Of a DNA stretch of 64,000 bases, positions 33,731-60,481 are shown one piece after another. The position numbers and the translations under genes are program-made. Source of the stretch: Cyanobacteria bacterium J069 (GTDB lineage Bacteria > Cyanobacteriota > Cyanobacteriia > Elainellales > Elainellaceae); the NCBI GenBank assembly GCA_003695655.1, contig RFIF01000414.1, positions 4,551 through 68,550 of the forward strand, given 5' to 3'. The notes beneath the pieces were generated by a model. It made no database searches. It saw only the letters and a program-made list of their open reading frames with translations, and had not been told where the DNA came from. Position 1 is the first letter of the stretch. Each line of letters starts with the position of its first letter.

Positions 33731-33746
33731 AAAAGGATGCTAAAAG

Positions 33747-33820
33747 GGCGAACGATGGGGATCGAACCCACGAATGGCGGAATCACAATCCGCTGCCTTA
33801 ACCACTTGGCTACGCTCGCC
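33747..33820 (-). tRNA. trnH: tRNA-His (GTG)
   Basis: GGCGAGCGTAGCCAAGTGGTTAAGGCAGCGGATTGTGATTCCGCC...GGTTCGATCCC; has G-1 and C73; CCA not encoded. Confidence 0.96.
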
Positions 33821-33974
33821 ATTAACTGCCGCATATAGGCAGATACTAGTATAGCACCCCAGTACAAAATTGCATTCCTTTTGTATCACTCCTAAGAAGC
33901 AGGTTTTAAGCTTCAAATACGGACTCCCCTTTCAACATCGGCTATACTGAGATTTGTTGTGTGAATGACTGCTT

Positions 33975-34048
33975 CGGGATGTAGCGCAGCTTGGTAGCGC
34001 GCCTGCTTTGGGAGCAGGATGCCGCAGGTTCGAATCCTGTCATCCCGA
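33975..34048 (+). tRNA. trnP: tRNA-Pro (TGG)
   Basis: CGGGATGTAGCGCAGCTTGGTAGC; anticodon arm CCTGC-TTTGGGA-GCAGG; GGTTCGAATCC. Confidence 0.96.
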
Positions 34049-34089
34049 TTTTTACTTTTAGGAACTGATCGCTGCTTAGAGGACAAGTT

Positions 34090-48765: not shown

Positions 48766-50102
48766 AGATATTCACAGGACGGCTCACTCCCGCTGGCGTT
48801 GTTCTGGAAGGATTCTGGGGCGGATTCTAGCTGACCCACAATGCCTGTGGGGTCTGGGCGGGCTGGAGCTGGGGGCGGCGCCCCCAGGTAAGACTGGCAA
48901 TGCTCAGATACTTCGGCGGACGCAGGAGCCGCAGGATGTTCAGGAGTGGTAATAGGATAGAACGGCTGGAGGGCGCGGAGGAGGGCGCTGGCAACGGGGT
49001 GATAGGGACTGGTGTCATGGGTGGCGGCGGGGCGATCGCCCTCCAATTCCAGCGCTGCCAGCCGCTCAGCTATCCTCATCACATCTGCTTTGAGTGCCGT
49101 CAAGGTCGGATATTGCTGGAGCGTTTGCCGCAACAGCGCATCTAGATCATAGCCCTTGAGATGCGTCCAGGCAGGCAGACCTGGCGGCAGCGGCTCATGC
49201 AACACCGCAAATAGCAGCAGCTTTGCCCGCAGCGGATTAGCATATTTCATCACGGCCAGCCGCAGATCAACTAGCGCCGCCGGGTCATCGGGGCTGAGGG
49301 GCTGAGGAGCCGCAGATTCTGAAGTGGCAGCGGCTAGAGCAGCGGATGCGGGGACGGCTGACTCTGGAAAACTCTCAGCTTCTGAAAGCGCTGGCGTGAC
49401 CACATCGGACGGCGGGGAAAGCGCCACCGGGCTATGGATGCGCGTCTCATCCGCCGTGTCAGCCACGGGTGTTGCCAGGTTTGCCTGGGTCAGTTCCAGT
49501 CCGTCGCCATACAGAGGCGCAAAGGCAGAGATAATCGTTTGAGCAACGCGGGTATATTCCGTCTGACGGTTTAGCGTCCGCACAATGCTGGTGAGGATAG
49601 CGTCGAGGGTTTGGGGCGTAGCGGTCAAACGATGCAGCCGCTGCACCAGTTCCACCAGCGAATGCTGGTTTAATACTTGGGGGTCATTTTCCCAGGTCTG
49701 GGTGCAGGCAGAGAACAGGAGTTTTTTGATGCGTATCCCGTTGGGGTTTTGCTCAAGCTGGGCGGCGACTTGCTGATAGGCTTGCGGGCTGGCCGTCAGC
49801 GACAGGGACTCGTTCACCGGATATAGCGGCTCCAGATGGCTGAGCGCAGCATTGGCGACCAGTGTATATTCGGTTACTTTGCTGAGCGTGTTGACGAGGG
49901 CCGTCAGATGACCCTCCAGGATTTGGCGCGTGGGATACTGTGTCCGCAGGTCTTGCACCAGCGGATATAGATCTGCTTGCTGAATTTGCACTGGATCTCG
50001 CTCCCAGATTTGCCTGCTGGCGTAAATCAGCAACTTCTTGATGCGCAGCAGATTGGGGTCTTGTGAGAGGTTTTGTATCACCTCATCCAATGGCGATCGC
50101 AC
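48762..50102 (-). CDS. Hypothetical protein with a repeated RIKKLL...WE.DP helical domain
   Basis: Two clear ~100-aa repeats plus a degenerate third (LRAKLLL); stop overlaps the pentapeptide gene start (ATGA). Confidence 0.8.
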   Translation of the reverse strand: MRSPLDEVIQNLSQDPNLLRIKKLLIYASRQIWERDPVQIQQADLYPLVQDLRTQYPTRQILEGHLTALVNTLSKVTEYTLVANAALSHLEPLYPVNESLSLTASPQAYQQVAAQLEQNPNGIRIKKLLFSACTQTWENDPQVLNQHSLVELVQRLHRLTATPQTLDAILTSIVRTLNRQTEYTRVAQTIISAFAPLYGDGLELTQANLATPVADTADETRIHSPVALSPPSDVVTPALSEAESFPESAVPASAALAAATSESAAPQPLSPDDPAALVDLRLAVMKYANPLRAKLLLFAVLHEPLPPGLPAWTHLKGYDLDALLRQTLQQYPTLTALKADVMRIAERLAALELEGDRPAATHDTSPYHPVASALLRALQPFYPITTPEHPAAPASAEVSEHCQSYLGAPPPAPARPDPTGIVGQLESAPESFQNNASGSEPSCEYL

Positions 50103-50285
50103 CTTTCTCCTTCCTCATGCACAGCTTATCTCTTATTAAATACCGAGTTCGCAAAACTGTCACAACCAACCTGCACAATAAGTCATTAGATCGAAATATC
50201 AAATCTAATATTCAGTCGCGATTGAATGCAGGACTCTACCAGTTGCGGACAAGTTGGTCAATCCCAAAATTGTGTTCAAGAAATT

Positions 50286-50377
50286 CAGAACTTACGCAGT
50301 TGAAACGAGTTTTATAGATGCTGGATGATTTTTCGTGGGCTGCGCCCACGAAAAATCATTCAATTGCGTAAGTCCTA
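50286..50377 (+). mobile_element. 92-bp dispersed inverted-repeat element, copy 3
   Basis: CAGAACTTACGCAGTTGAAACGAGTTTTATAG...CAATTGCGTAAGTCCTA. Confidence 0.8.
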
Positions 50378-50448
50378 TTACAGTTAGATCGCCTCGTCTG
50401 CTGAACGCGGTTTGCAAAGCTGCGCTCAGCACTTTAGCCAGCCAGCGT

Positions 50449-51411
50449 CTAGCGGTCTGCTGCCGCCTGCACCACCGCCAGGAACTGGGCCAGCACTACA
50501 GACGGGTGGCGGGTCTGCCAAACTGCAACAATTTCCAGATCGGGCAGGTCGTCTTGAAGATCGCGATAGACCACGCCGCTGCGCTGGAGATGTTTCACAT
50601 TGGCCGGCAGCAGCGACACGCCCACCCCACCCGTCACCAGGCTCAGCACGGTGGTGATCCAGGCGGCTTCCTGCTCAACTCGCGGCTTGAAGCCTGCCTG
50701 TTGACAGACCCGCTCAATCTCGTCGCGCAGCCCCCGCAGCAGGCTGTGGGGCGGCAGAATGAAGCGATCGCCCCGCAGGTCTATCAGCGACACGGTTGCC
50801 CGTCTGGCCAGCCGATGGCGCTGGGGCAACACGGCCACCAGCGGTTCACACAGCACCCGCAGCGTAGACATACCCAGATGGACTTCTGCATCAAGCGTCT
50901 GGAGGTTATGCCGATGAAAAAAGCCAATGTCGAGCTGGCGGGTCTGCAACTGGGCGATCTGGTCATAGGACGCCAGTTCATGCAGCACCAGGCTCACCTC
51001 GGGAAACTGCTGGTGAAACGCCTGCAAAATTTCCGGCAGCTTGCTGTTGGCGATAGAGGTGTTGATGCCAATGTCTAATCGGCCGCGCTTGCCCTGGTGG
51101 GTTTCTCGCGCCAGCGCCACGGCTCGCCGCGTTTGGGAGAGAATTTGCCCTGCCTGTTCCAAAAAATCATGCCCCGCCTCGGTAATCGCCAGCGGGCGCG
51201 TCTTGCGGTTAAACAGGGGAAAGCCCAGCCGAGCTTCGAGCCGCTGGATCTGCTTGCTGAGAAACCCCTGATCTAGCCCCAGGGCGATCGCCGCCAGAAT
51301 GAAGCCCCGATGCTCGGCCACGGCGATCGCATATTCCAAATGCCGAAACTCTAGCTCGCTCCAAAGGGCGGCTGGCTCTGGCTCAGCAGTTCTGTCCTGA
51401 GAGTCTTGCAT
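50449..51411 (-). CDS. LysR-family transcriptional regulator
   Basis: LEFRHLEY...LSKQIQRLEARLGFPLFNR HTH; LVTGGVGVSLLP; ATG at 51411 preferred. Confidence 0.93.
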   Translation of the reverse strand: MQDSQDRTAEPEPAALWSELEFRHLEYAIAVAEHRGFILAAIALGLDQGFLSKQIQRLEARLGFPLFNRKTRPLAITEAGHDFLEQAGQILSQTRRAVALARETHQGKRGRLDIGINTSIANSKLPEILQAFHQQFPEVSLVLHELASYDQIAQLQTRQLDIGFFHRHNLQTLDAEVHLGMSTLRVLCEPLVAVLPQRHRLARRATVSLIDLRGDRFILPPHSLLRGLRDEIERVCQQAGFKPRVEQEAAWITTVLSLVTGGVGVSLLPANVKHLQRSGVVYRDLQDDLPDLEIVAVWQTRHPSVVLAQFLAVVQAAADR

Positions 51412-51570
51412 CGGGTTTCGCGCAGATGACTTGGCGCAGATGATTTGGCGCAGATTATGCCAATTTGAACATCGAGCAATGTCTAATATGTTGAATAACA
51501 CATCGCTAGTTGCCGCTATTCTAATCTTCATTGCGGCCAAAAGGCGAATTTTCGCGGAGGGCTATGAACG

Positions 51571-52494
51571 ATGAACAAGATTCAGCGGGTACTGATTGTC
51601 GGCGGCACCCACGGCAACGAACTCACCGGGGTTTATCTCGTACAGCGGTTTGAGCAGCAGCCGCATTTGGTGCAGCGGCCCAGCTTTGATACGCGGACAC
51701 TGCTGAGCAATCAGGCGGCGATCGCCGCTGGGGTGCGCTATGTCGATCAGGATATGAACCGCTGCTGCGATCGCCAGTCGTTGGCCACCCCCACCCCTGC
51801 CGCCTATGAGGTGGCGCGGGCTCAAGAAATTTCCCGCCACTTTGGAACCACGGGTTCCACCCCCGCTGATGTGATTCTCGACCTCCACAGCACCACCGCC
51901 AACATGGGTCTGACGCTGATTTTGGATGATCACCACCCGTTCAAGCTGCAACTGGCAGCCGCCCTCAGCGCTCAGCAGCCCGCTTTGCGGGTCTACAGCT
52001 CAGCAAACTCAGGCCGCCAGCAAGACGCACTGCGATCGCTCGGTAGATTTGGCTTTTGTCTGGAAGTTGGCCCAGTTGCTCAGGGCGTGTTGGAAGCAGA
52101 CCTGTTTCACCGTACCGAGGCGCTGGTGTTGCAAACCCTAGACTATCTAGACAGGCTGAACCAGGACACACCAACCACAGCGCCCCATCCGCTGACCCTT
52201 TACCAATATCTCGGTACGGTGCCCTATCCCAAAGACTCTAAAGGACGGCTACAAGCGATGATTCATCCACAGCTTCAGGGGCAAGATTATCAACCGCTTC
52301 ATCCCGGCGACCCAATGTTCCTATCGCTGACGGGGGAAACGATTGCCTATGCGGGCGAAGACCCGGTTTTTCCCGTGTTTATTAACGAGGCGGCCTATTA
52401 CGAAAAAGACATTGCTATGGTGCTAACGCGGCCCCAGCAAATCGAGGTGGAAACCTGGGTAGAACCGGAATCGGAAGCTAGAACATGTCGCTGA
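51571..52494 (+). CDS. Aspartoacylase
   Basis: GGTHGNE, DMNR, DLHSTT, EVGP, FINEAAYYEK. Confidence 0.93.
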   Translation: MNKIQRVLIVGGTHGNELTGVYLVQRFEQQPHLVQRPSFDTRTLLSNQAAIAAGVRYVDQDMNRCCDRQSLATPTPAAYEVARAQEISRHFGTTGSTPADVILDLHSTTANMGLTLILDDHHPFKLQLAAALSAQQPALRVYSSANSGRQQDALRSLGRFGFCLEVGPVAQGVLEADLFHRTEALVLQTLDYLDRLNQDTPTTAPHPLTLYQYLGTVPYPKDSKGRLQAMIHPQLQGQDYQPLHPGDPMFLSLTGETIAYAGEDPVFPVFINEAAYYEKDIAMVLTRPQQIEVETWVEPESEARTCR

Positions 52495-52523
52495 ACATGT
52501 CGCCTGCCGACTCGGTTCGTGCC

Positions 52524-53738
52524 CTATTGCACCCGAATCCGCGACAGAATCGCGCCTCGATAGTAGTGCGTCACAATATCTCGATAGCTGGCTCCCTGCG
52601 CCGCCATGCCAAACGCGCCATACTGGCTCATGCCAATGCCGTGACCAAACCCGCGCCCTGTCACCTGGAAGCTGGGCGGAGCAGCCGCACCCTGAGCGCT
52701 GGCGATCTGTCCAAGCTGGGGCTGAATCGTAAACAGTGTGCTGCGGAGATTTAGCGCCTGCCGAATCTGATCACCCGTTAGCTCCTTGCTGCCCGCATCG
52801 CCCACCACGCGCACCCGCCGCAACCGCTGATTTGGCGAGGCTTGCACCAGCTCAAACCGGACGATATTGCCAATGCCCGTGATTCGCTGCCGCATCTGGT
52901 CGGCGGTAAAGGTTTCCGACCACTGAAACACGGGAGCAGACTGGTCATAGTCGGGCACTCCGCGCAAGTAGGGCAGCGGACTCACCCACACATCCTCAGA
53001 GTTTTCTGTATGCCCGCCCGATGAGGAGTGATAGACCGCGTTGATGATCTGCCCGTTGTGGGTCAACACCTGACCCTGGGTGGCCTGCACAGCGGCGATC
53101 GTGCTGCTGGCTTCCTTTTCGGCACCGCCATAGGCCTGCCAACGAGTGGTGTTGCCCACGTCAAACACAGTGTTGCCGCTGGTTTGCCGCTGATAGAGGG
53201 CATAGGTGCGGGCGGCTACTGCCTGCGCTTTGAGCGCCTCTAGGTGCCAGCTTGCGGGCATTTCACTGCCCACAACGCTATAGAGATATTCCTCAAGATC
53301 GACATAGTTGACCGCCGTCAGCCCAGCGGCCGTGGGCACTACTAGCACCCGTCCCCGGTAGTAGCGACCGCGATTATTGTCTCCAGGATTGTCGATGTAA
53401 ACGAAGCCGCCGTTTTGCGGCTCTAACCAGACGGCGTTGAGCTGCCAGTCGCTAATTTTTAGACCGGCGGCATCGGGGGAGGCGACGAGCGAAGTGCCTT
53501 GCTGAAGCTGGGCCAGGACGCGCCCGCTGCCGTCTTTAAGCACGGAGGCAGTGTTGCTGCCGATTTGAACGCTGGGCACGTCGCGCTCGATCGACACGCG
53601 CAGGTCTAGTTCGGCGCGCGCAGGAGCGATCGCCACCAGCCACAGCATCGCCGTCAGCCACCAGGAACGCTGCCCCAACTTGAACCCCAGCTTGACGAGC
53701 GCTTGCAAAAAGCCCGTATATTTCAGCGTTTGAATCAC
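52524..53738 (-). CDS. SpoIID/LytB-domain protein
   Basis: LEEYLYSVVGSEM, EALKAQAVAARTYA, GFGHGIGMSQYGA; N-terminal signal peptide. Confidence 0.93.
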   Translation of the reverse strand: MIQTLKYTGFLQALVKLGFKLGQRSWWLTAMLWLVAIAPARAELDLRVSIERDVPSVQIGSNTASVLKDGSGRVLAQLQQGTSLVASPDAAGLKISDWQLNAVWLEPQNGGFVYIDNPGDNNRGRYYRGRVLVVPTAAGLTAVNYVDLEEYLYSVVGSEMPASWHLEALKAQAVAARTYALYQRQTSGNTVFDVGNTTRWQAYGGAEKEASSTIAAVQATQGQVLTHNGQIINAVYHSSSGGHTENSEDVWVSPLPYLRGVPDYDQSAPVFQWSETFTADQMRQRITGIGNIVRFELVQASPNQRLRRVRVVGDAGSKELTGDQIRQALNLRSTLFTIQPQLGQIASAQGAAAPPSFQVTGRGFGHGIGMSQYGAFGMAAQGASYRDIVTHYYRGAILSRIRVQ

Positions 53739-54348
53739 AACAACCTCACACCAACGGAGACAGATACTTCAGGATTAACTCAGGTGAAATCAGTTTGGGA
53801 CGGGTCTTTCAGGCTTATTTTAGGCTTAAATATTGGCAAATCTCGAATATCGAAAAATTCGCCCCAAAAACAGCCGCTACGATTCTTTACAGAAGGGTAT
53901 CACGGAATGCCGAGCTGGAAGAGTATGCTCAATGTTTGAGCCAGATTTTTGATGAATTTCCGGGTTCATGACGCCGTATTCACCATCCAGCAGCCAGGCG
54001 AAAACCGCTAGACAAAGCCGTTTGATCTTCGGCTCTGCATCTCTGTAAAGTTTCGATGAACTCGCAAAACACCGTCTTTTCTCACCTAGACCGACGCCAC
54101 CAGTCGATTAGTTCCTGGCTTGTTCAATATCTGGCGATCGCCCCCAAAAACCTTGCGCTGGACAAACGCTTGAGCCACAATATCGCGCCAATAGTGTGCC
54201 ATTGCTCTTGCCAACCCCTGCCCTGACCCACTGCCAGATCTGGACTGTCTTAAAGTGTTGCTGGTTGTAGAACCGCCTTAACACCTGCTTTGCATCTTTC
54301 GGGCGTCCCCATTTTCGGGTTTCCCTCAACAGACAACTGAGAAAACAA

Positions 54349-54398
54349 TGATAGAAATAACTAAGGGTTCATCTGATAGAAATAACTAAGGGTTCATC
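54349..54398. repeat. Perfect 25-nt tandem duplication downstream of the HNH gene
   Basis: TGATAGAAATAACTAAGGGTTCATC x2. Confidence 0.9.
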
Positions 54399-54412
54399 AC
54401 TTAAGAGTTCTT

Positions 54413-54865
54413 TTAAGGGTTCTTTAAAGATTTCAAGAGCTTCATCGGGCGCGCTGCTTTGATCCCCGACAGGCGATCGGGATGATGTTTCATCATATAG
54501 TGCTCATACTCAAACCAATGCATCTCGCCCTTTTCATCATTACAAGCTTTACAAATTACCCAGAAATTATCAAAGTTCATAGATAGCCAGGGATATTGCG
54601 ATCGCGGCAATTTGTGATCGATTGTTCTACCGCCACACTCAGAGAACCTAACGCCACAGATCGGGCAGTGGAAATCTGAGTTATCCCTCGCCCAATCTCG
54701 GCTTTCTTGAGTTGTGCCGCAATCATGTTCACCATTGACATAGCGCCAGTGGTTAAACTTTTCATAATCTTCGAGGTCTTGGCGCGTCAGCTTGTGATAA
54801 CGCTGCTTTCCAATTTTGTCTGCCAATGCAAACAGTTCAGGCAGTCGTTTGCCGTCAAGATTCAC
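54413..54865 (-). CDS. HNH endonuclease with Zn-binding CxxC pairs
   Basis: CPIC...TIDHKLPRSQYP...NFWVICKACNDEKG; GTG start preceded by AGGAG. Confidence 0.9.
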   Translation of the reverse strand: MNLDGKRLPELFALADKIGKQRYHKLTRQDLEDYEKFNHWRYVNGEHDCGTTQESRDWARDNSDFHCPICGVRFSECGGRTIDHKLPRSQYPWLSMNFDNFWVICKACNDEKGEMHWFEYEHYMMKHHPDRLSGIKAARPMKLLKSLKNP

Positions 54866-54950
54866 TGTTAGCTCCTGTCTATTTAGATCTGTCTATTTGA
54901 ATCTGATTAAGTCTGAAAAATTTGCCGATCCAGCCGATTTTATTTGAAAT

Positions 54951-55364
54951 CTATTTAGACCGTTTACGAGTCGGCTTTTTGACAGCACTACCAAAATCAA
55001 TCACTTCGATTTCTGTATCTGGAAACTGCTGATCAATTAGCTCTCCAATCTCGGCAACCTCCTGAGACATCTTCCGGTTAAATTCCTCAATCTCTTCAGC
55101 AGAGAGGTATTTATTTCCAATGCGATCAGCTTCTAGAAATAGCTCCTCTAAACTCATGTCTTTGAACTGAGCTTTGTCCAAAAAATCCTCAATTTTTTGA
55201 TACAGGCGAATCACATTATCCCAGCCAACATTCCGATAGCCATTCTCCTTTAGCCAGTTTTGCTCTTCTTGAGTAATTTTTTTTCGATTATCAGAATTGG
55301 CACGCTGCACCTGGACGTAGCCCATTCCGTTAAATTTTTTCGCCTGCCTGGAGTTCTGCCCCAT
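54951..55364 (-). CDS. Hypothetical protein, middle gene of the HNH operon
   Basis: 137-aa ORF 15 nt downstream of the coiled-coil gene; no recognised family. Confidence 0.8.
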   Translation of the reverse strand: MGQNSRQAKKFNGMGYVQVQRANSDNRKKITQEEQNWLKENGYRNVGWDNVIRLYQKIEDFLDKAQFKDMSLEELFLEADRIGNKYLSAEEIEEFNRKMSQEVAEIGELIDQQFPDTEIEVIDFGSAVKKPTRKRSK

Positions 55365-55379
55365 GTTCTCTCAAGCCCC

Positions 55380-56006
55380 CTATCCTAAAGTCCACCTAAA
55401 CAAACGAATCACCGCTTTACGGAGTTCACTATCTTCATATTGCAGCAGCACTTTGGTATCCTCAGCCAGTCTCAGTCGAATCTGATCGACGATATTTTTA
55501 AGGTCTTTGTTTTCTTTTTTAAGCTGTGCATTTACATCTGTTAGCTCGGTATTTTGGTTAGCTAAATCTTGCACCTTGGAAGACAAAGCCTGATTGTTTT
55601 GGGATAGGCTTTTTAACTCAGACTCTAGTTTGAGCTGCTCTTCCTCAAGGGCTTTCTTTTTCTGCTCCAGCGTTTGCTTGCCGACTTCTAAGGTTCTTTT
55701 TTTCTGTTCTAGTGCTTGCTTATCTGCTTCAAGATCTTTAATCGACTGCGCTAGCTGGGTATATTCAGTTTTTAAGGTTTCGAGTTTGCGCTCTGCCTGA
55801 CTGCGAAGCTGACCATAGTGGGCATTATTCCTTCCCAGGCTGGCATTTTTTTTGGCAAACGAATCGACAAGTCTGGCGGCGGAGTGGTCTTGCTGAAGGA
55901 GCGCCAGGATATTCTCACAATCCTCGCGGGTTAGCGATTCTGTGATGTTTTTATTGATACCAAGTTTTTCTTTCAGGATAGTTTGCAGTTCACCCTTAGA
56001 CACCAT
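55380..56006 (-). CDS. Coiled-coil hypothetical protein, first gene of the HNH operon
   Basis: Long heptad stretch including LEADKQALEQKKRT/LEVGKQTLEQKKKA; small globular ends. Confidence 0.82.
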   Translation of the reverse strand: MVSKGELQTILKEKLGINKNITESLTREDCENILALLQQDHSAARLVDSFAKKNASLGRNNAHYGQLRSQAERKLETLKTEYTQLAQSIKDLEADKQALEQKKRTLEVGKQTLEQKKKALEEEQLKLESELKSLSQNNQALSSKVQDLANQNTELTDVNAQLKKENKDLKNIVDQIRLRLAEDTKVLLQYEDSELRKAVIRLFRWTLG

Positions 56007-56060
56007 TGGTTACTCTCTTAATACTGGTTATTCTCTTAATACTGGTTATTCTCTTAGTGT
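56007..56060. repeat. 18-nt tandem repeat x3 abutting the operon start codon
   Basis: TGGTTACTCTCTTAATAC / TGGTTATTCTCTTAATAC / TGGTTATTCTCTTAGTGT. Confidence 0.85.
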
Positions 56061-56452
56061 CGATTGCTCTTAATACTAGTTGCCATTGAATTAATTACCA
56101 TTGATACTGATCATTCTCTTGGTTACGCCTTCAAGTGATGACGCTGATAACGCTCTTAATTTTTGATTTGGTTGCGCCTTAATTTGGTCGCGCGCTTTGG
56201 CTTAATAATCATCGAGAACATGAGGCAGCCTATGCGATCGCCCTCTGTGGTGCCGAGGAATAGTTCAGTGCCTGAGCGTAACCCTATTTTGCCCAGACCA
56301 GGTCTGAGCAAGATAGCTTTCAAGAACTTTTGTATCTTTACTATTCCGACTCTGGCATCAAAAAACCGCCAGCTTTTCACAAAAGTTAGTCTATTTCTAA
56401 CGGATTTGAAGATTTCTGGCTACTTTTCCCAATTCAGACTTTGCACCAGTTG

Positions 56453-56499
56453 CAGGTTTGGCAACCAGCAGGTTTGGCAACCAACAGGTTTGGCAACCA
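56453..56499. repeat. Tandem repeat x3 with a 16-nt period
   Basis: CAGGTTTGGCAACCA at 56453, 56469 and 56485. Confidence 0.85.
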
Positions 56500-56850
56500 A
56501 TGTAGAAAACTCTGAAGGTCGCGGTTAGTCAGTTTCTGGCTGCGCTTTGCCTGAAAATATAGACCAGGTTTTGCCCATGCCGTAGCGAATCACACTGCAC
56601 AAACGCCCGCCTGTACCAGTACAATTCAATCTATTCGCTAGATTTATGCTGCGAAGCAGGGCGATCGCCTGGTGTTTGCTTTCGAGCTGACGCTTGGTGT
56701 AAGGTCACGGACGTCAGTTCACGTCAGTCCCCAGGTTCACGTCGGTGCACCATCAGTTCATTCAGGCAGTTTATTTAGAAGTGGCTCCCAAGCCGCAGCC
56801 AAACTAGCCAAATCTATTTCTTTGCTCAGATCGATTAGGAAGAACTCCCA

Positions 56851-57636
56851 ATGACGCAATATCACACGGATGCAATCACCAACGGCAATGGTCAAGTTGG
56901 CTCCGAGCCGGTGATCTTGGCGGAAAACGTGGAGAAATGGTACGACAATAACTTCCATGTGCTGCGCGGCGTTAGTTTGACGGTGCAAAAGGGCGAAGTG
57001 GTGGTGGTAATGGGGCCTTCTGGGTCAGGAAAATCCACCTTTATCCGCACTTTCAACGCGCTAGAGAGCTACCAAAAGGGCAAGATTGTGATCGACGGGA
57101 TTCACCTTTCCCATGATCTGAAGAATATCGATGCAATCCGGCGGGAAGTGGGCATGGTGTTTCAGCAGTTCAACCTGTTTCCCCATCTATCAGTCCTGCA
57201 AAACGTGATGCTTGCGCCGATTTGGGTGCGCCGCTGGCCCAAGGCCCGAGCCGAGGAGAAAGCCCTGCAACTGCTAGAACGGGTTGGCATTTTGGAACAA
57301 GCGAAGAAGTTTCCGGGGCAGCTTTCGGGCGGACAGCAGCAGCGGGTGGCGATCGCCCGCGCCCTGGCGATGGAACCCAAGATTATGCTGTTTGACGAAC
57401 CTACCAGCGCTCTCGACCCGGAAATGGTACGTGAGGTGCTGGATGTAATGCGAACCCTGGCGCAATCAGGGATGACGATGGTCTGCGTGACGCATGAAGT
57501 GGGCTTTGCTCGTGAAGTCGCCGATCGAGTAGTGCTGATGGCGGATGGGCTATTGGTCGAAGAAGGCACGCCCGAAACCTTCTTCAACGATCCCAAAGAG
57601 GAGCGTACGCAGAAGTTCCTCTCGCAGATTCTGTAG
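56851..57636 (+). CDS. Polar amino-acid ABC transporter ATP-binding subunit (BgtA/GlnQ-like)
   Basis: [45 protein letters not shown]. Confidence 0.95.
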
Positions 57637-57773
57637 ACAGGGATTAGGTTGCAGGGATTAGGTTGCAGGGGTTAGTGACGGGGCAAGACCTGGAAATTGC
57701 CTCTTTGCTGACAGCCTGAAACCTGACTCCTGATCTCTGTCACCTGACCCCTGTCACCTGACTCCTGGCACCG

Positions 57774-57782
57774 TGCTATTCT
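57774..57782 (+). promoter_or_regulatory. Extended -10 promoter of SRP RNA
   Basis: TG-C-TATTCT a few nt before the RNA 5' end. Confidence 0.55.
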
Positions 57783-57787
57783 AAAGA

Positions 57788-57883
57788 AGACCTGGATCCA
57801 CGCGATTACAACGCCCAAATCTTGTCAGGACCGGAAGGTAGCAGCAATACGGGATGCTTGTAATAGGCGTGGTCTCCGGGTCT
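57788..57883 (+). ncRNA. ffs: Signal recognition particle 4.5S RNA
   Basis: Domain IV motif TCAGGACCGGAAGGTAGCAGC; ends pair (AGACCTGGA/TCCGGGTCT); T tract follows. Confidence 0.93.
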
Positions 57884-57941
57884 TTTTGTGTTTAGCCCTG
57901 GCTCGAAAAGATTCTGGCTCGAAAAGATATTTAGGTAGACG

Positions 57942-58373
57942 GTGGAACGGCTTCAGGCAGAGCGAATTGAGTCAATTAAAGCGGGTGGGCTGGGTGCCCT
58001 GGTCTGTGCCATGGTGGTGTTGCTGGGGGCGATCGCCAACACCCTCCTGGCCGCTCGCTGGAACGCCTTAACCGTCCTCTCGCTCAATTGGGCAACCTTT
58101 TTACATTTGGCAAACGCTGCACTTGCAGGACTATTATTTGGCGTCACCTATCGCTACGTGGTGCGCCAGGGCGAAAATCCCCATCTCAGTTCGGGTGTGG
58201 TGTTGGCCTTTGCGCTGGTGCGCGGGCTGGCCCAGCTTGAAACTGGCTGGACGCTGCACGGCAACCCGACCCTGCTGCTAATTTTGGGTGGCGAAAGTTT
58301 TTTGATGATGGCGATCGCCGCTGTTGTTCTAAATATCGCCTTGTCTCGCAAAGCAATTCTTCCCTTTGTATGA
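57942..58373 (+). CDS. Hypothetical membrane protein
   Basis: ERIESIKAG, LFGVTYRYVVR, LSSGVVLAFALVRGL; about four TM segments. Confidence 0.8.
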   Translation: MERLQAERIESIKAGGLGALVCAMVVLLGAIANTLLAARWNALTVLSLNWATFLHLANAALAGLLFGVTYRYVVRQGENPHLSSGVVLAFALVRGLAQLETGWTLHGNPTLLLILGGESFLMMAIAAVVLNIALSRKAILPFV

Positions 58374-58441
58374 TCTTGGCAGGCTGCCTCGCTCGCGCCA
58401 TTCAGAACTCGTTAGGCTGAAGGGAAAACCAGGAGCGGGGC

Positions 58442-60481
58442 ATGGCGAGCGAGGTCAAGCTGATTGTCGAAATGGTGTCAGTGCTTGGGGCAGCCACCAC
58501 AGGCGGGTATCTGGCAAATCGATTGCGACAGCCCGTATTGCTGGGCTATCTGCTGGGGGGCATCGTCATTGGCCCGGCTGGGCTGGGCTGGGTAACTCTA
58601 GAAGGTGACATTGAAGTCCTGGCATCGGTCGGCGTGGCGCTGCTGCTGTTTGCTCTGGGGGTAGAGCTATCGCTCAAAGATTTGCTACGAATGCGGCGGA
58701 TTGCCCTGGGTGGCGGCACTCTGCAAATTTTGCTCACCATTTTGCTAGGCGGCGGCTTGGCCTACGGCATGGGCTGGGTTTCTACCATTCCCAAGGCGGT
58801 GTTTCTGGGGGCTGTGCTGTCGCTGTCGTCTACGGCGGTGGTGCTCAAGAGCCTGCTAGAGCGCAACGAAATGCAGAGTCAGCACGGGCAGATCATGCTG
58901 ACGCTGCTAATTGTGCAGGATTTAGCCGTCGGCATCATGCTGGCGGTGCTGCCTGCGCTCACCCAGTCGCCCGAGCAAATTGGGGGGGCGCTACTGACGG
59001 CCTTTCTCAAGGCGCTGCTGTTTATGGGCGGGGCAGCGCTGGCAGGGATCTGGCTGATTCCCCGGCTGATCCGGACACTTGCGCGAAGCGGCTCTCCAGA
59101 GCTTTTTTTGCTAGGAATTTTGGTGTTGTGTCTGGGTGTGGCGCTGCTGACTTCGGCAATTGGGCTGGGGATTGAGATGGGCGCGTTCGTGGCGGGGCTG
59201 CTGGTGTCGAATGTGGAGTATGCCGACCATGCGCTGGATCGGGTGCTGCCGATGCGGGATGTATTTGCCACGCTGTTTTTTGCATCCATTGGGCTGCTGA
59301 TCGATCCGGTCTTTTTGTGGGAAAACGCCTGGGCGCTGCTGGGGCTGGTGGGCATTGTGATGGTGGGCAAGGCGGCGATCGCCACCAGCCTCGTCCGCGC
59401 CTTTGGCTATTCCTTCAAAACGGCGCTGCTGGTGGGGCTGGGCATTAACCAGATCGGAGAATTTTCGTTTGTGCTGGCAGGCGTGGCGCGGAGCACGGAG
59501 CTGTTTACCGACCAAGTCTACGGGCTGACCGTGGGTACAGCGGCCGCGACCCTGCTGATCACACCGTTCGTGCTGCGCGCTGCGCCACACCTGCTGACCT
59601 GGCTAGAGCGGTTTCCCCAAATTTACGGCTGGCTAGATCCCAAGCGGCCGCCCCAGTTTGTCGGCCCGTCCGATGAGCTAGCTAATCATGTGGTGGTTGC
59701 GGGCTATGGCCGCGTCGGGCAAACCCTGGTGCGAATGCTCTACTTTCAAGGCTATAAGCTATTGGTGATCGACAATAATGAGGCAGTGCTGGCCAGCCTG
59801 CGCAGTCGCCAAATTCCTTACCTGCTCGGCGATGCTTCTAGCAATGTGCTGCTGGAAAAAGCAAATTTGGGCCAGGCGCGAGCGATGGCGATCGCCCTGC
59901 CCGATCCGTTTGCGACCCGCCTCGCCTTGCAGCGGGCCCTCAGCCTCGCCCCCGACCTGGACATCACCGTGCGGGCCCACGCCACCGACGAAATCGACGC
60001 GCTCTACCAGCTTGGCGCACAGGAAGTCGTGCAGCCCGAGTTTGAAGCCTCGCTAGAAATGGGCGCACACCTGCTGCTCAACCTGGGCGACACGGCATCG
60101 GCGGTGCAACAGGTCGTCCATCGCTACCGTAGCGGGCGCTATCGCGACATTTTGCCCGAGCGGTCGGCATATTGGGGACGGGCAGACCTGGACTCGGTGA
60201 CCGACGGCTTTCCCAAGCATTGGTACATCCTGGAGCCGAGTTCTCCCCTGGCAGGAAAAAGCCTGGGACAGGCTAACGTCCGCCGCGCCACCGGAGCCAC
60301 CATCATGGCAATCGAGCGGCACAAACAGCTCCACGCTTACCCACTGGGAGACACTCTGCTGGAGGTGGGCGATCGCCTGCTGGTGGTGGGCAACCCCGAA
60401 GAACACCACGCTTTTGCCACACTCATCCGTAGTAGCGCCTTGCCGGCCGACCCCAACCGATATACTGAAGACAAGCTTTAG
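58442..60481 (+). CDS. CPA2 cation:proton antiporter (Kef-like) with TrkA_N and TrkA_C domains
   Basis: SLSSTAVV, QDL, GEFSFV, GYGRVG, C-terminal RCK_C. Confidence 0.93.
   Translation: MASEVKLIVEMVSVLGAATTGGYLANRLRQPVLLGYLLGGIVIGPAGLGWVTLEGDIEVLASVGVALLLFALGVELSLKDLLRMRRIALGGGTLQILLTILLGGGLAYGMGWVSTIPKAVFLGAVLSLSSTAVVLKSLLERNEMQSQHGQIMLTLLIVQDLAVGIMLAVLPALTQSPEQIGGALLTAFLKALLFMGGAALAGIWLIPRLIRTLARSGSPELFLLGILVLCLGVALLTSAIGLGIEMGAFVAGLLVSNVEYADHALDRVLPMRDVFATLFFASIGLLIDPVFLWENAWALLGLVGIVMVGKAAIATSLVRAFGYSFKTALLVGLGINQIGEFSFVLAGVARSTELFTDQVYGLTVGTAAATLLITPFVLRAAPHLLTWLERFPQIYGWLDPKRPPQFVGPSDELANHVVVAGYGRVGQTLVRMLYFQGYKLLVIDNNEAVLASLRSRQIPYLLGDASSNVLLEKANLGQARAMAIALPDPFATRLALQRALSLAPDLDITVRAHATDEIDALYQLGAQEVVQPEFEASLEMGAHLLLNLGDTASAVQQVVHRYRSGRYRDILPERSAYWGRADLDSVTDGFPKHWYILEPSSPLAGKSLGQANVRRATGATIMAIERHKQLHAYPLGDTLLEVGDRLLVVGNPEEHHAFATLIRSSALPADPNRYTEDKL

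Follow-up and report, generated by a model that had tools for sequence, protein, structure and literature searches.

What is the function of three small co-oriented genes, one of them encoding a putative nuclease, that stand between two housekeeping genes of Cyanobacteria bacterium J069? The locus lies in the stretch of DNA analyzed here (the window: 64,000 nucleotides of contig RFIF01000414.1, positions 4,551 to 68,550), and a first-pass annotation, made from the sequence alone, proposed it as a candidate for an undescribed defense or toxin-antitoxin system. The three open reading frames (ORFs), which we call CC, MID, and HNH in the order of transcription, were confirmed with the lengths (208, 137, and 150 amino acids) and the spacing (15 and 85 nucleotides) given in that annotation. 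All three genes appear intact, and the GTG start codon of HNH is preceded at a distance of 8 nucleotides by the ribosome-binding site AGGAG. The explanation that we favor, if tentatively, is that their products form a complex of a scaffold, an adaptor, and a nuclease, which would be restrained through a helix common to the adaptor and the nuclease and would act in conflict with phages. The coordinates of the genes and of the features discussed below are collected in Table 1.

The set of loci analyzed in this study comprises the window cassette and 33 foreign cyanobacterial loci from about nine host families. The order CC-MID-HNH is identical in all of them (33/33 foreign loci, 34/34 with the window), with usual gaps of 12 and 11 nucleotides and, in the locus L036, an overlap of cassette genes by 4 nucleotides. 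Conservation of the triplet, which the first-pass annotation had foreseen, is far beyond chance, since every one of the foreign loci is collinear. No additional conserved gene family was found around the 34 loci. MID has more than 559 homologues with 60–70% identity, and all source names shown for them are cyanobacterial; as far as our searches found, the cassette is confined to cyanobacteria. In the ESM Atlas, the only clusters matched were unnamed cyanobacterial ones. All three genes are under purifying selection, with median ratios of nonsynonymous to synonymous substitution rates (dN/dS, where dS is near saturation) of 0.32 for CC, 0.20 for MID, and 0.14 for HNH. A few cassettes are decaying: HNH is truncated in L019 (genome G016), and internal stop codons were observed in MID of L008 (G020) and in HNH of L030 (G336).

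The product of the third gene is a member of the PF01844 family (23.3 bits, the gathering score being 21.4). The zinc-HNH signature seen in the first-pass annotation is intact: residues C67, P68, C70, D83, H84, N100, C105, C108, and N109, forming the motifs CPxC, DH, N, and CxxCN, do not vary among 33 sequences and include two CxxC zinc pairs, C67/C70 and C105/C108. Judged by these residues, HNH is catalytically intact. Its fold weakly resembles Cas9-HNH and Cap5, and Foldseek found nothing in the PDB beyond weak HNH-domain matches. Neither HNH nor MID has a match in a collection of 50,697 phage genomes. Viral contigs, which were scanned as well, yielded neither the full cassette nor close relatives of HNH, the viral matches being limited to the generic core with 25–39% identity.

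The first gene encodes a coiled-coil protein, for which only generic coiled-coil matches were obtained in Pfam, NCBIfam, PHROGs, and PADLOC. Its small helical N-terminal domain has no match among PDB sequences, and the assignment of this domain to the SAP/HeH/Rho_N DNA-binding motifs lacks sequence support. The central coil is variable in length (alignment A3), the window protein having 208 residues compared to the usual 194. The columns from L155 to G208 of the C-terminal domain are invariant or near-invariant, with the consensus ...LKKDNKDLKNIVDQIRLRLA...YEDSEIRKALIRLFRWTLG. In two loci, L023:3027-3557 and L027:3028-3558 (family f30; the CC start codons were picked by a script), the C-terminal domain is retained and the N-terminus is unrelated; by eye, this alternative N-terminus looks UBA/TS-N-like.

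The middle gene encodes a protein (alignment A1) that belongs to no family in Pfam, NCBIfam, PHROGs, or PADLOC. Fold searches (Foldseek PDB, VIA wide, and BFVD) retrieved generic helical bundles only; the AlphaFold2 (AF2) model of the whole protein has a predicted local distance difference test score (pLDDT) of 77. A profile search among 1.84 billion representatives resolved MID into two modules that also occur apart. The N-domain, a predicted three-helix bundle with the invariant residues Y16, Q20, N23, N45, and W48, heads 35 representative small proteins that have other tails and lack the second module; its own fold search gave generic helical matches only (Z 5.5 or lower). The C-module, a helical hairpin of about 55 residues, occurs without the N-domain in 66 representatives, many of which are short (46–145 amino acids). 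Near the C-terminus of several unrelated middle proteins, namely the N-domain proteins P0172, P0173, P0186, and P0217 and the proteins of L099-L101, a common motif NN[IV][IV]xF or NVIAFP was observed, which might serve as another portable docking peptide.

The adaptor and the nuclease are linked by their sequences. The first helix of the C-module is repeated at the N-terminus of HNH: the profiles of MID residues 66–85 and HNH residues 2–21 align over 20 columns with an hhalign probability of 83.9% (E 7.7e-6; BLASTP E 0.007). Another segment suggested by BLASTP, MID 10–41 with HNH 36–62, fails at the profile level (E 0.12). In the AF2 model of HNH alone, the N-terminal helix has low confidence (pLDDT about 50), as would be expected if it folds on a partner. 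Within type-1 cassettes, that is, those of the window type, the two copies of the helix do not co-vary (p 0.62), because the helix, with the motif LxELFxxADxIG, is nearly invariant.

The same design recurs in two paralogous types of cassette. Type-3 cassettes, found in other host families, consist of a coiled-coil ORF, an N-domain protein, and an HNH protein in 12 of 12 loci, and in all 12 the middle protein and the nuclease each end in a helix followed by a [KR]YxxL tail. The tails are more similar within a cassette than across cassettes (BLOSUM scores of 30.0 and 22.7, respectively; permutation p 0.006 on ten non-redundant loci), and exclusion of the fixed motif does not abolish the likeness (p 0.009), these p-values being only indicative because the loci are related. 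In type-2 cassettes, represented by three loci, the N-terminus of the first protein is homologous to that of type-1 CC (hhalign 96.8%, E 3e-10), whereas the middle protein is of a different family from MID. From residue ~83 onward, each of the three middle proteins aligns better with the N-terminus of the nuclease from the same cassette (z 3.5, 4.3, and 2.1) than with those from other cassettes (z from -0.3 to 1.8). By these alignments, the pattern is general, with the middle protein of all three cassette types copying the terminal helix of its own nuclease, and in types 2 and 3 the sequence of the shared helix is specific to the cassette. Two types of cassette co-reside in the genomes G056, G170, and G012, an arrangement consistent with orthogonal pairing.

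A natural fusion observed in seven contigs bears on the role of the helix. This 292-amino-acid protein (P0247) joins the N-terminal domain and coil of CC to the HNH core and lacks exactly the C-terminal domain of CC, MID, and the HNH helix, which fits a role of these three parts as a non-covalent tether. A second natural product, the 72-residue deletion-fusion P0192, joins the C-terminal motif of CC to the C-terminus of MID.

The other link leads from the adaptor to phages. Carriers of the C-module include four phage portals of two unrelated families (Portal_Mu, 6.5e-93, and Phage_portal_3, 3.5e-41) and a protein of 2,420 amino acids with N6-methylase and SNF2 domains (N6_Mtase+SNF2), the domain make-up of which resembles that of P1 DarB. 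In these proteins the module shares about 60% identity with that of MID over about 55 residues and is always flanked by low-complexity linkers. Further, in the viral contig L050, which encodes TerL, a Mu-type portal, and MuF, a protein of 121 amino acids has the C-module at its N-terminus and adjoins an ORF for a 201-residue coiled-coil protein within the block of head genes. In another protein, P0164 (712 amino acids), a fragment of a Mu-type portal precedes the C-module, behind which stands a weakly matching ParB_N nuclease-like domain (E 4.1e-5, short of the Pfam cut-off); this order suggests enzymatic cargo tethered to the portal downstream of the module. The shared module has no match among PDB sequences. 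Its identification as a SAP/HeH/Rho_N DNA-binding motif lacks sequence support, since among the 25 of 29 matched families listed none of this type was matched by the 29 module proteins; weak EF-hand_10 matches were observed in three of the 29. A search with a degenerate DNA pattern returned an uninformative contig (L096) and a chance match (L097).

Taken together, we tentatively favor the following explanation. CC would be a coiled-coil scaffold, MID a two-module adaptor, and the third protein an active zinc-HNH nuclease, the three forming one self-contained machine; the roles of CC as a scaffold and MID in nuclease control, already suggested in the first-pass annotation, fit the shared-helix data. 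Most likely, the similar helices of MID and HNH either bind one another or vie for a single site on the CC scaffold, and either way MID could tether its own nuclease and restrain it. During infection, phage proteins bearing the module might titrate or recruit the MID/HNH pair and release or aim the nuclease, or they might block the system. Conflict with phages is the most likely role of the cassette because the C-module is also present on phage portals and on the DarB-like methylase-helicase. Precedents are established: phages mark cargo with short capsid-targeting tags (PMC9024508), and in many phages an HNH gene stands beside the terminase and portal genes (PMC3592412). The HNH core, moreover, is closest to profiles from defense systems (PDC-M01B and PtuB). 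The sequences establish the conserved operon, its intact catalytic residues, the modular build of MID, the helix common to adaptor and nuclease in three cassette types, and the phage carriers of the module; the physical interactions, the inhibition of the nuclease, and the anti-phage role are our inference. If the explanation is true, the cassettes represent an undescribed ATPase-free nuclease family, known so far only from cyanobacteria and comprising at least three paralogous types, with the design rule that the adaptor carries a copy of the end helix of its own nuclease. The relation to portals and the DarB-like protein would then be a route for the cell to sense or sabotage capsid assembly, and two unannotated protein families with hundreds of members would obtain their first function.

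Several observations weigh against this explanation. The portal of the viral contig L050 itself has no C-module; a survey of 300 cyanobacterial genomes located the module inside MID genes only, with no prophage copy; and no relative of CC was found in the viral contigs. The type-2 pattern is known from three loci, and homology of the coiled-coil protein upstream in type-3 cassettes to CC is unsupported (1.4% probability). The sequence of the fusion P0247, as printed, differs at two otherwise invariant HNH positions, so that the gene may be decaying. The enrichment near defense islands that the first-pass annotation had expected was not borne out: among the 119 nearest neighbors of the 34 loci (ORFs that we called on the genomes), most are metabolic or housekeeping genes, with three occurrences of PIN and two of XisI; the PADLOC matches resemble generic ATPase or kinase cross-matches. 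No sign of a defense island is thus seen among these neighbors, an impression from tallies without control neighborhoods and not a measured depletion. Finally, largely vertical inheritance within host families and high sequence conservation also suit a cellular housekeeping role.

A bolder version of the phage conflict, which we consider rather improbable, is that the C-module is a self-pairing docking piece connecting phage cargo (the DarB-like enzyme and small proteins) to the portal, and that the cassette has copied it, so that HNH is unleashed at the packaging vertex. The MID and HNH proteins of the host could then be drawn to the packaging vertex or stripped apart there; immunity would arise by mimicry of a virion-assembly tag, and the paralogous types would use mutually orthogonal helices.

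Among the rival explanations, an accessory or housekeeping complex acting on the cell's own DNA in repair, recombination, resolution, segregation of the multi-copy chromosome, or DNA uptake, independently of phages, is unlikely but has some observations in its favor. The ordinary metabolic and housekeeping neighbors are as expected for it, as are the strong purifying selection and the identity of 60–75% across families. The tree of MID and HNH groups by host family with a few well-supported cross-family placements, as would result from largely vertical inheritance accompanied by losses and an occasional transfer. Relative to its flanks, the cassette is enriched in AT in 33 of the 34 loci (by 8 percentage points of guanine plus cytosine (GC) on average), and its GC content (27–51%) follows that of the host, implying long residence; low GC is therefore a family trait, and recent horizontal transfer was rejected as its cause. 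Thus the AT-richness reported in the first-pass annotation stands (GC of 0.41–0.45 over ~54200-56450, compared to ~0.58–0.64 in the spoIID and downstream genes), but it is not a sign of recent acquisition here. The distribution, however, is as patchy as the first-pass annotation had supposed: the cassette is present in 19 of 36 genomes of the family, in none of three congeners, and in about 14 of some 400 genomes across the phylum. Failure to find it in about half of the family, in any of the three congeners, and in most of the phylum does not fit a housekeeping complex, nor do the base composition that is consistently AT-richer than that of the host, the paralogous types with cassette-specific helices able to co-reside in one genome, and the module that it shares with phage portals and cargo proteins. 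If such a complex is nevertheless what the genes encode, they represent a new conserved machine of cyanobacterial chromosome biology.

A three-component toxin-antitoxin or addiction system, with HNH as the toxin, MID as an antitoxin acting via the matching helix, and CC as a regulator or chaperone, would be kept by post-segregational or stress-linked killing rather than by defense as such. We consider it improbable, although the genes are small and tightly packed (with the 4-nucleotide overlap in L036), the way in which adaptor and nuclease helices match within a cassette is reminiscent of cognate toxin-antitoxin pairs, PIN-domain genes neighbor three loci, and the N-domain of MID is a three-helix bundle like some antitoxins, with a generic match (Z 5.4) to the epsilon antitoxin. 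The cassette has no recognizable DNA-binding autoregulator and matches no known toxin-antitoxin family in Pfam, NCBIfam, PHROGs, or PADLOC; it is single-copy and chromosomal, off plasmids and islands as far as seen; and the conserved scaffold of about 200 residues and the link to portals are left unexplained.

Still less probable is a domesticated or parasitic phage-packaging module that was derived from head-assembly genes and now has a cryptic satellite-like role or loads the nuclease into capsids. The C-module on portals and on the DarB-like protein, the phage HNH genes adjacent to those of terminase and portal, and the small module-tagged protein of L050 next to its coiled-coil ORF could all be understood in this way. 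Yet no terminase, portal, capsid, integrase, or replication gene is near any of the 34 cassettes, HNH and MID are unmatched in the phage genome collection, and the viral contigs contain neither the full cassette nor a CC relative, only generic HNH cores. A selfish homing-endonuclease cassette that cuts empty sites and leaves the tandem repeats as footprints is largely refuted and barely credible: HNH enzymes are common among homing nucleases, and the cassette, flanked by repeats, stands at a break in synteny. It is single-copy, however, and is not associated with an intron or intein; neither its insertion sites nor its flanks showed conservation, and other loci do not share the repeats. Nor would a homing element be expected to consist of three genes conserved together, kept by purifying selection, and inherited mostly vertically.

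The local setting of the cassette agrees in part with the first-pass annotation. The left neighbor is indeed spoIID (Pfam 6.9e-31), and the translation of the right neighbor shows the Walker A and signature motifs of an ABC-ATPase. In blastn comparisons with two complete genomes of the same genus (G002 and G003), homology stops at position 53909 and restarts at 56578, and the spoIID and ABC-ATPase genes of these congeners are separated by distances of 224 kb to about 2.2 Mb. The cassette is thus part of a genome-specific segment that coincides with a break in synteny. The congeners have no simple empty site, and the borders can be defined by homology only, because the two flanking genes are not adjacent there. 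Remnants of insertion sequences or transposons were sought in the non-coding parts of the segment (53910-54412 and 56007-56577) and rejected: one weak 108-nucleotide similarity to a stretch without a recognizable gene elsewhere in the genome was found, no transposase was seen, and these parts have no repeats elsewhere in the genome. In the assembly of this genome (626 contigs, 86% complete), CC, MID, and HNH are each single-copy. The tandem repeats said to bracket the locus are present at both ends but are not conserved in other loci; as candidate operators or iterons they were rejected, being found upstream in only four of 34 loci with unrelated sequences. Another tandem repeat, three copies of the 16-nucleotide unit CAGGTTTGGCAACCAA, is located at 56453-56500, about 450 nucleotides upstream of CC within the genome-specific segment. 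The HIP1 site on which the first-pass annotation based long residence in cyanobacteria is present at 54598 but says little about residence, as it encodes the invariant PRSQ motif and the density of such sites is 0.63 per kb in the cassette compared to 1.59 per kb in the window.

Table 1. Genes, domains, and local features of the CC-MID-HNH cassette in the window
Feature	Position	Strand	Description
CC	56006..55380	-	ORF, 208 amino acids; coiled-coil protein, proposed scaffold
CC N-terminal small helical domain, residues 1-60	55827..56006	-	69% mean column identity in 23 loci (alignment A6)
Two-heptad insertion in CC, 14 residues, in frame	55680..55721	-	Coiled coil, residues 96-109; this genome only (alignment A3)
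CC C-terminal domain, residues ~150-208	55383..55559	-	Most conserved part of CC (alignment A3)
MID	55364..54951	-	ORF, 137 amino acids; two-module protein, proposed adaptor
MID N-domain, residues ~9-65	55170..55340	-	Predicted three-helix bundle, pLDDT 92-94
MID C-module, residues ~66-125	54990..55169	-	Portable helical hairpin of ~55 residues; also in phage portals and DarB-like protein
MID helix common to HNH N-terminus, residues 66-85	55110..55169	-	First helix of the C-module
Expanded MID-HNH spacer	54866..54950	.	85 nucleotides, usual 11; holds a 14-nucleotide x2.2 repeat at 54875-54905
HNH	54865..54413	-	ORF, 150 amino acids; zinc-HNH nuclease, GTG start
HNH N-terminal helix, residues 2-21	54803..54862	-	Copies the opening helix of the MID C-module
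HNH catalytic and zinc core, residues ~64-115	54521..54676	-	Pfam stretch 67-113
Tandem repeat, 25 nucleotides x2, 100%	54349..54398	.	Tandem Repeats Finder (TRF) score 100; just 3' of the HNH stop codon; local feature
Tandem repeat, 18 nucleotides x2.8	56007..56056	.	TRF score 93; abuts the CC start codon; local feature
Terminator-like hairpin and T-run	54155..54169	-	~245 nucleotides downstream of HNH; consensus scan only
Genome-specific segment with the cassette, 2.67 kb	53910..56577	.	Synteny breakpoint

Other features of the window were observed outside the cassette. A stretch of about 60 nucleotides at 56578-56638, upstream of the ABC-ATPase gene, is 87–95% identical in two congeners, in which its surroundings are not conserved; it may be a leader or regulatory element of this gene. 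Just downstream of the same gene, at 57789-57885 on the forward strand, is the gene for the bacterial small signal recognition particle RNA (Rfam RF00169, 65.9 bits, E 3.6e-13). The genes for tRNA-His(GTG) (33746-33819, reverse strand) and tRNA-Pro(TGG) (33974-34049, forward strand) are placed divergently.

Compared with known systems by sequence, the cassette matches none that has been described, as the first-pass annotation had concluded, and library scans agree that it contains no ATPase, reverse transcriptase, membrane, or methylase gene; PADLOC gives matches to the HNH core (PtuB and PDC-M01B) and coiled-coil noise for CC only. The cassette resembles Septu (the PtuA ATPase with the HNH protein PtuB, including the retron-associated PtuAB) in that a small HNH effector is encoded together with partner genes. 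However, no PtuA-type ATPase is found in or beside any of the 34 cassettes, and the genes that accompany HNH encode a coiled-coil protein and an adaptor of two modules, neither of them from a known family. The PtuB1 match (1.9e-10) connects residues 53–122 of the 150 in HNH with positions 38–109 of the 224-position profile, mainly the core of about 60 residues. The best match of HNH in the defense library is PDC-M01B of the PADLOC candidate PDC-M01 (4.7e-12), but it covers residues 57–115 relative to a profile of 285 positions, and no PDC-M01 match for CC or MID is among the matches listed. Since only the HNH core matches, the cassette is not PDC-M01. Zorya type II differs in having the membrane proteins ZorA and ZorB, for which the cassette has no counterpart, and ZorE is absent among the best 25 of 58 PADLOC matches. 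As for retrons with HNH effectors, the cassette has no reverse transcriptase gene, its nuclease reaches 12.9 bits with the NCBIfam retron HNH model (cut-off 52), and Rfam detects no retron RNA in 50000-60000. Lacking the ATPase, the membrane motor, and the reverse transcriptase with its retron RNA, the cassette is thus neither Septu, nor Zorya II, nor a retron. Homing endonucleases are set apart by the single copy and variable flanks of the cassette.

The phage-packaging HNH proteins of the HK97 gp74 type, encoded next to terminase and portal genes (PMC3592412), are likewise small zinc-HNH proteins, and the cassette is related by sequence to portals through the C-module. The cassette does not belong with them because that gene context is missing: it is never beside terminase or portal genes, it is unmatched in the 50,697 phage genomes, and its link to portals is via the adaptor module and not the HNH domain. 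Capsid-targeting tags, such as the N-terminal signal of P1 DarB and the capsid-targeting sequence (CTS) of T4 IPIII, are, like the C-module, short portable pieces, found on large methylase-helicase cargo and on other phage proteins (PMC9024508). The module differs in being about 55 residues long, in being present on the portal as well, and in having a cellular copy in a nuclease operon; we liken the two with no sequence relation claimed. The omega-epsilon-zeta systems also consist of three small genes that are transcribed together and end in a potentially toxic enzyme, with a three-helix bundle in the middle protein. No homology supports this likeness, the epsilon fold match being generic, and the first gene of the cassette encodes a long coiled coil and none of the three a repressor-type DNA-binding protein. 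In its mode of action, the cassette would resemble other HNH effectors under the control of partners, though both the partners and the logic of pairing would be new.

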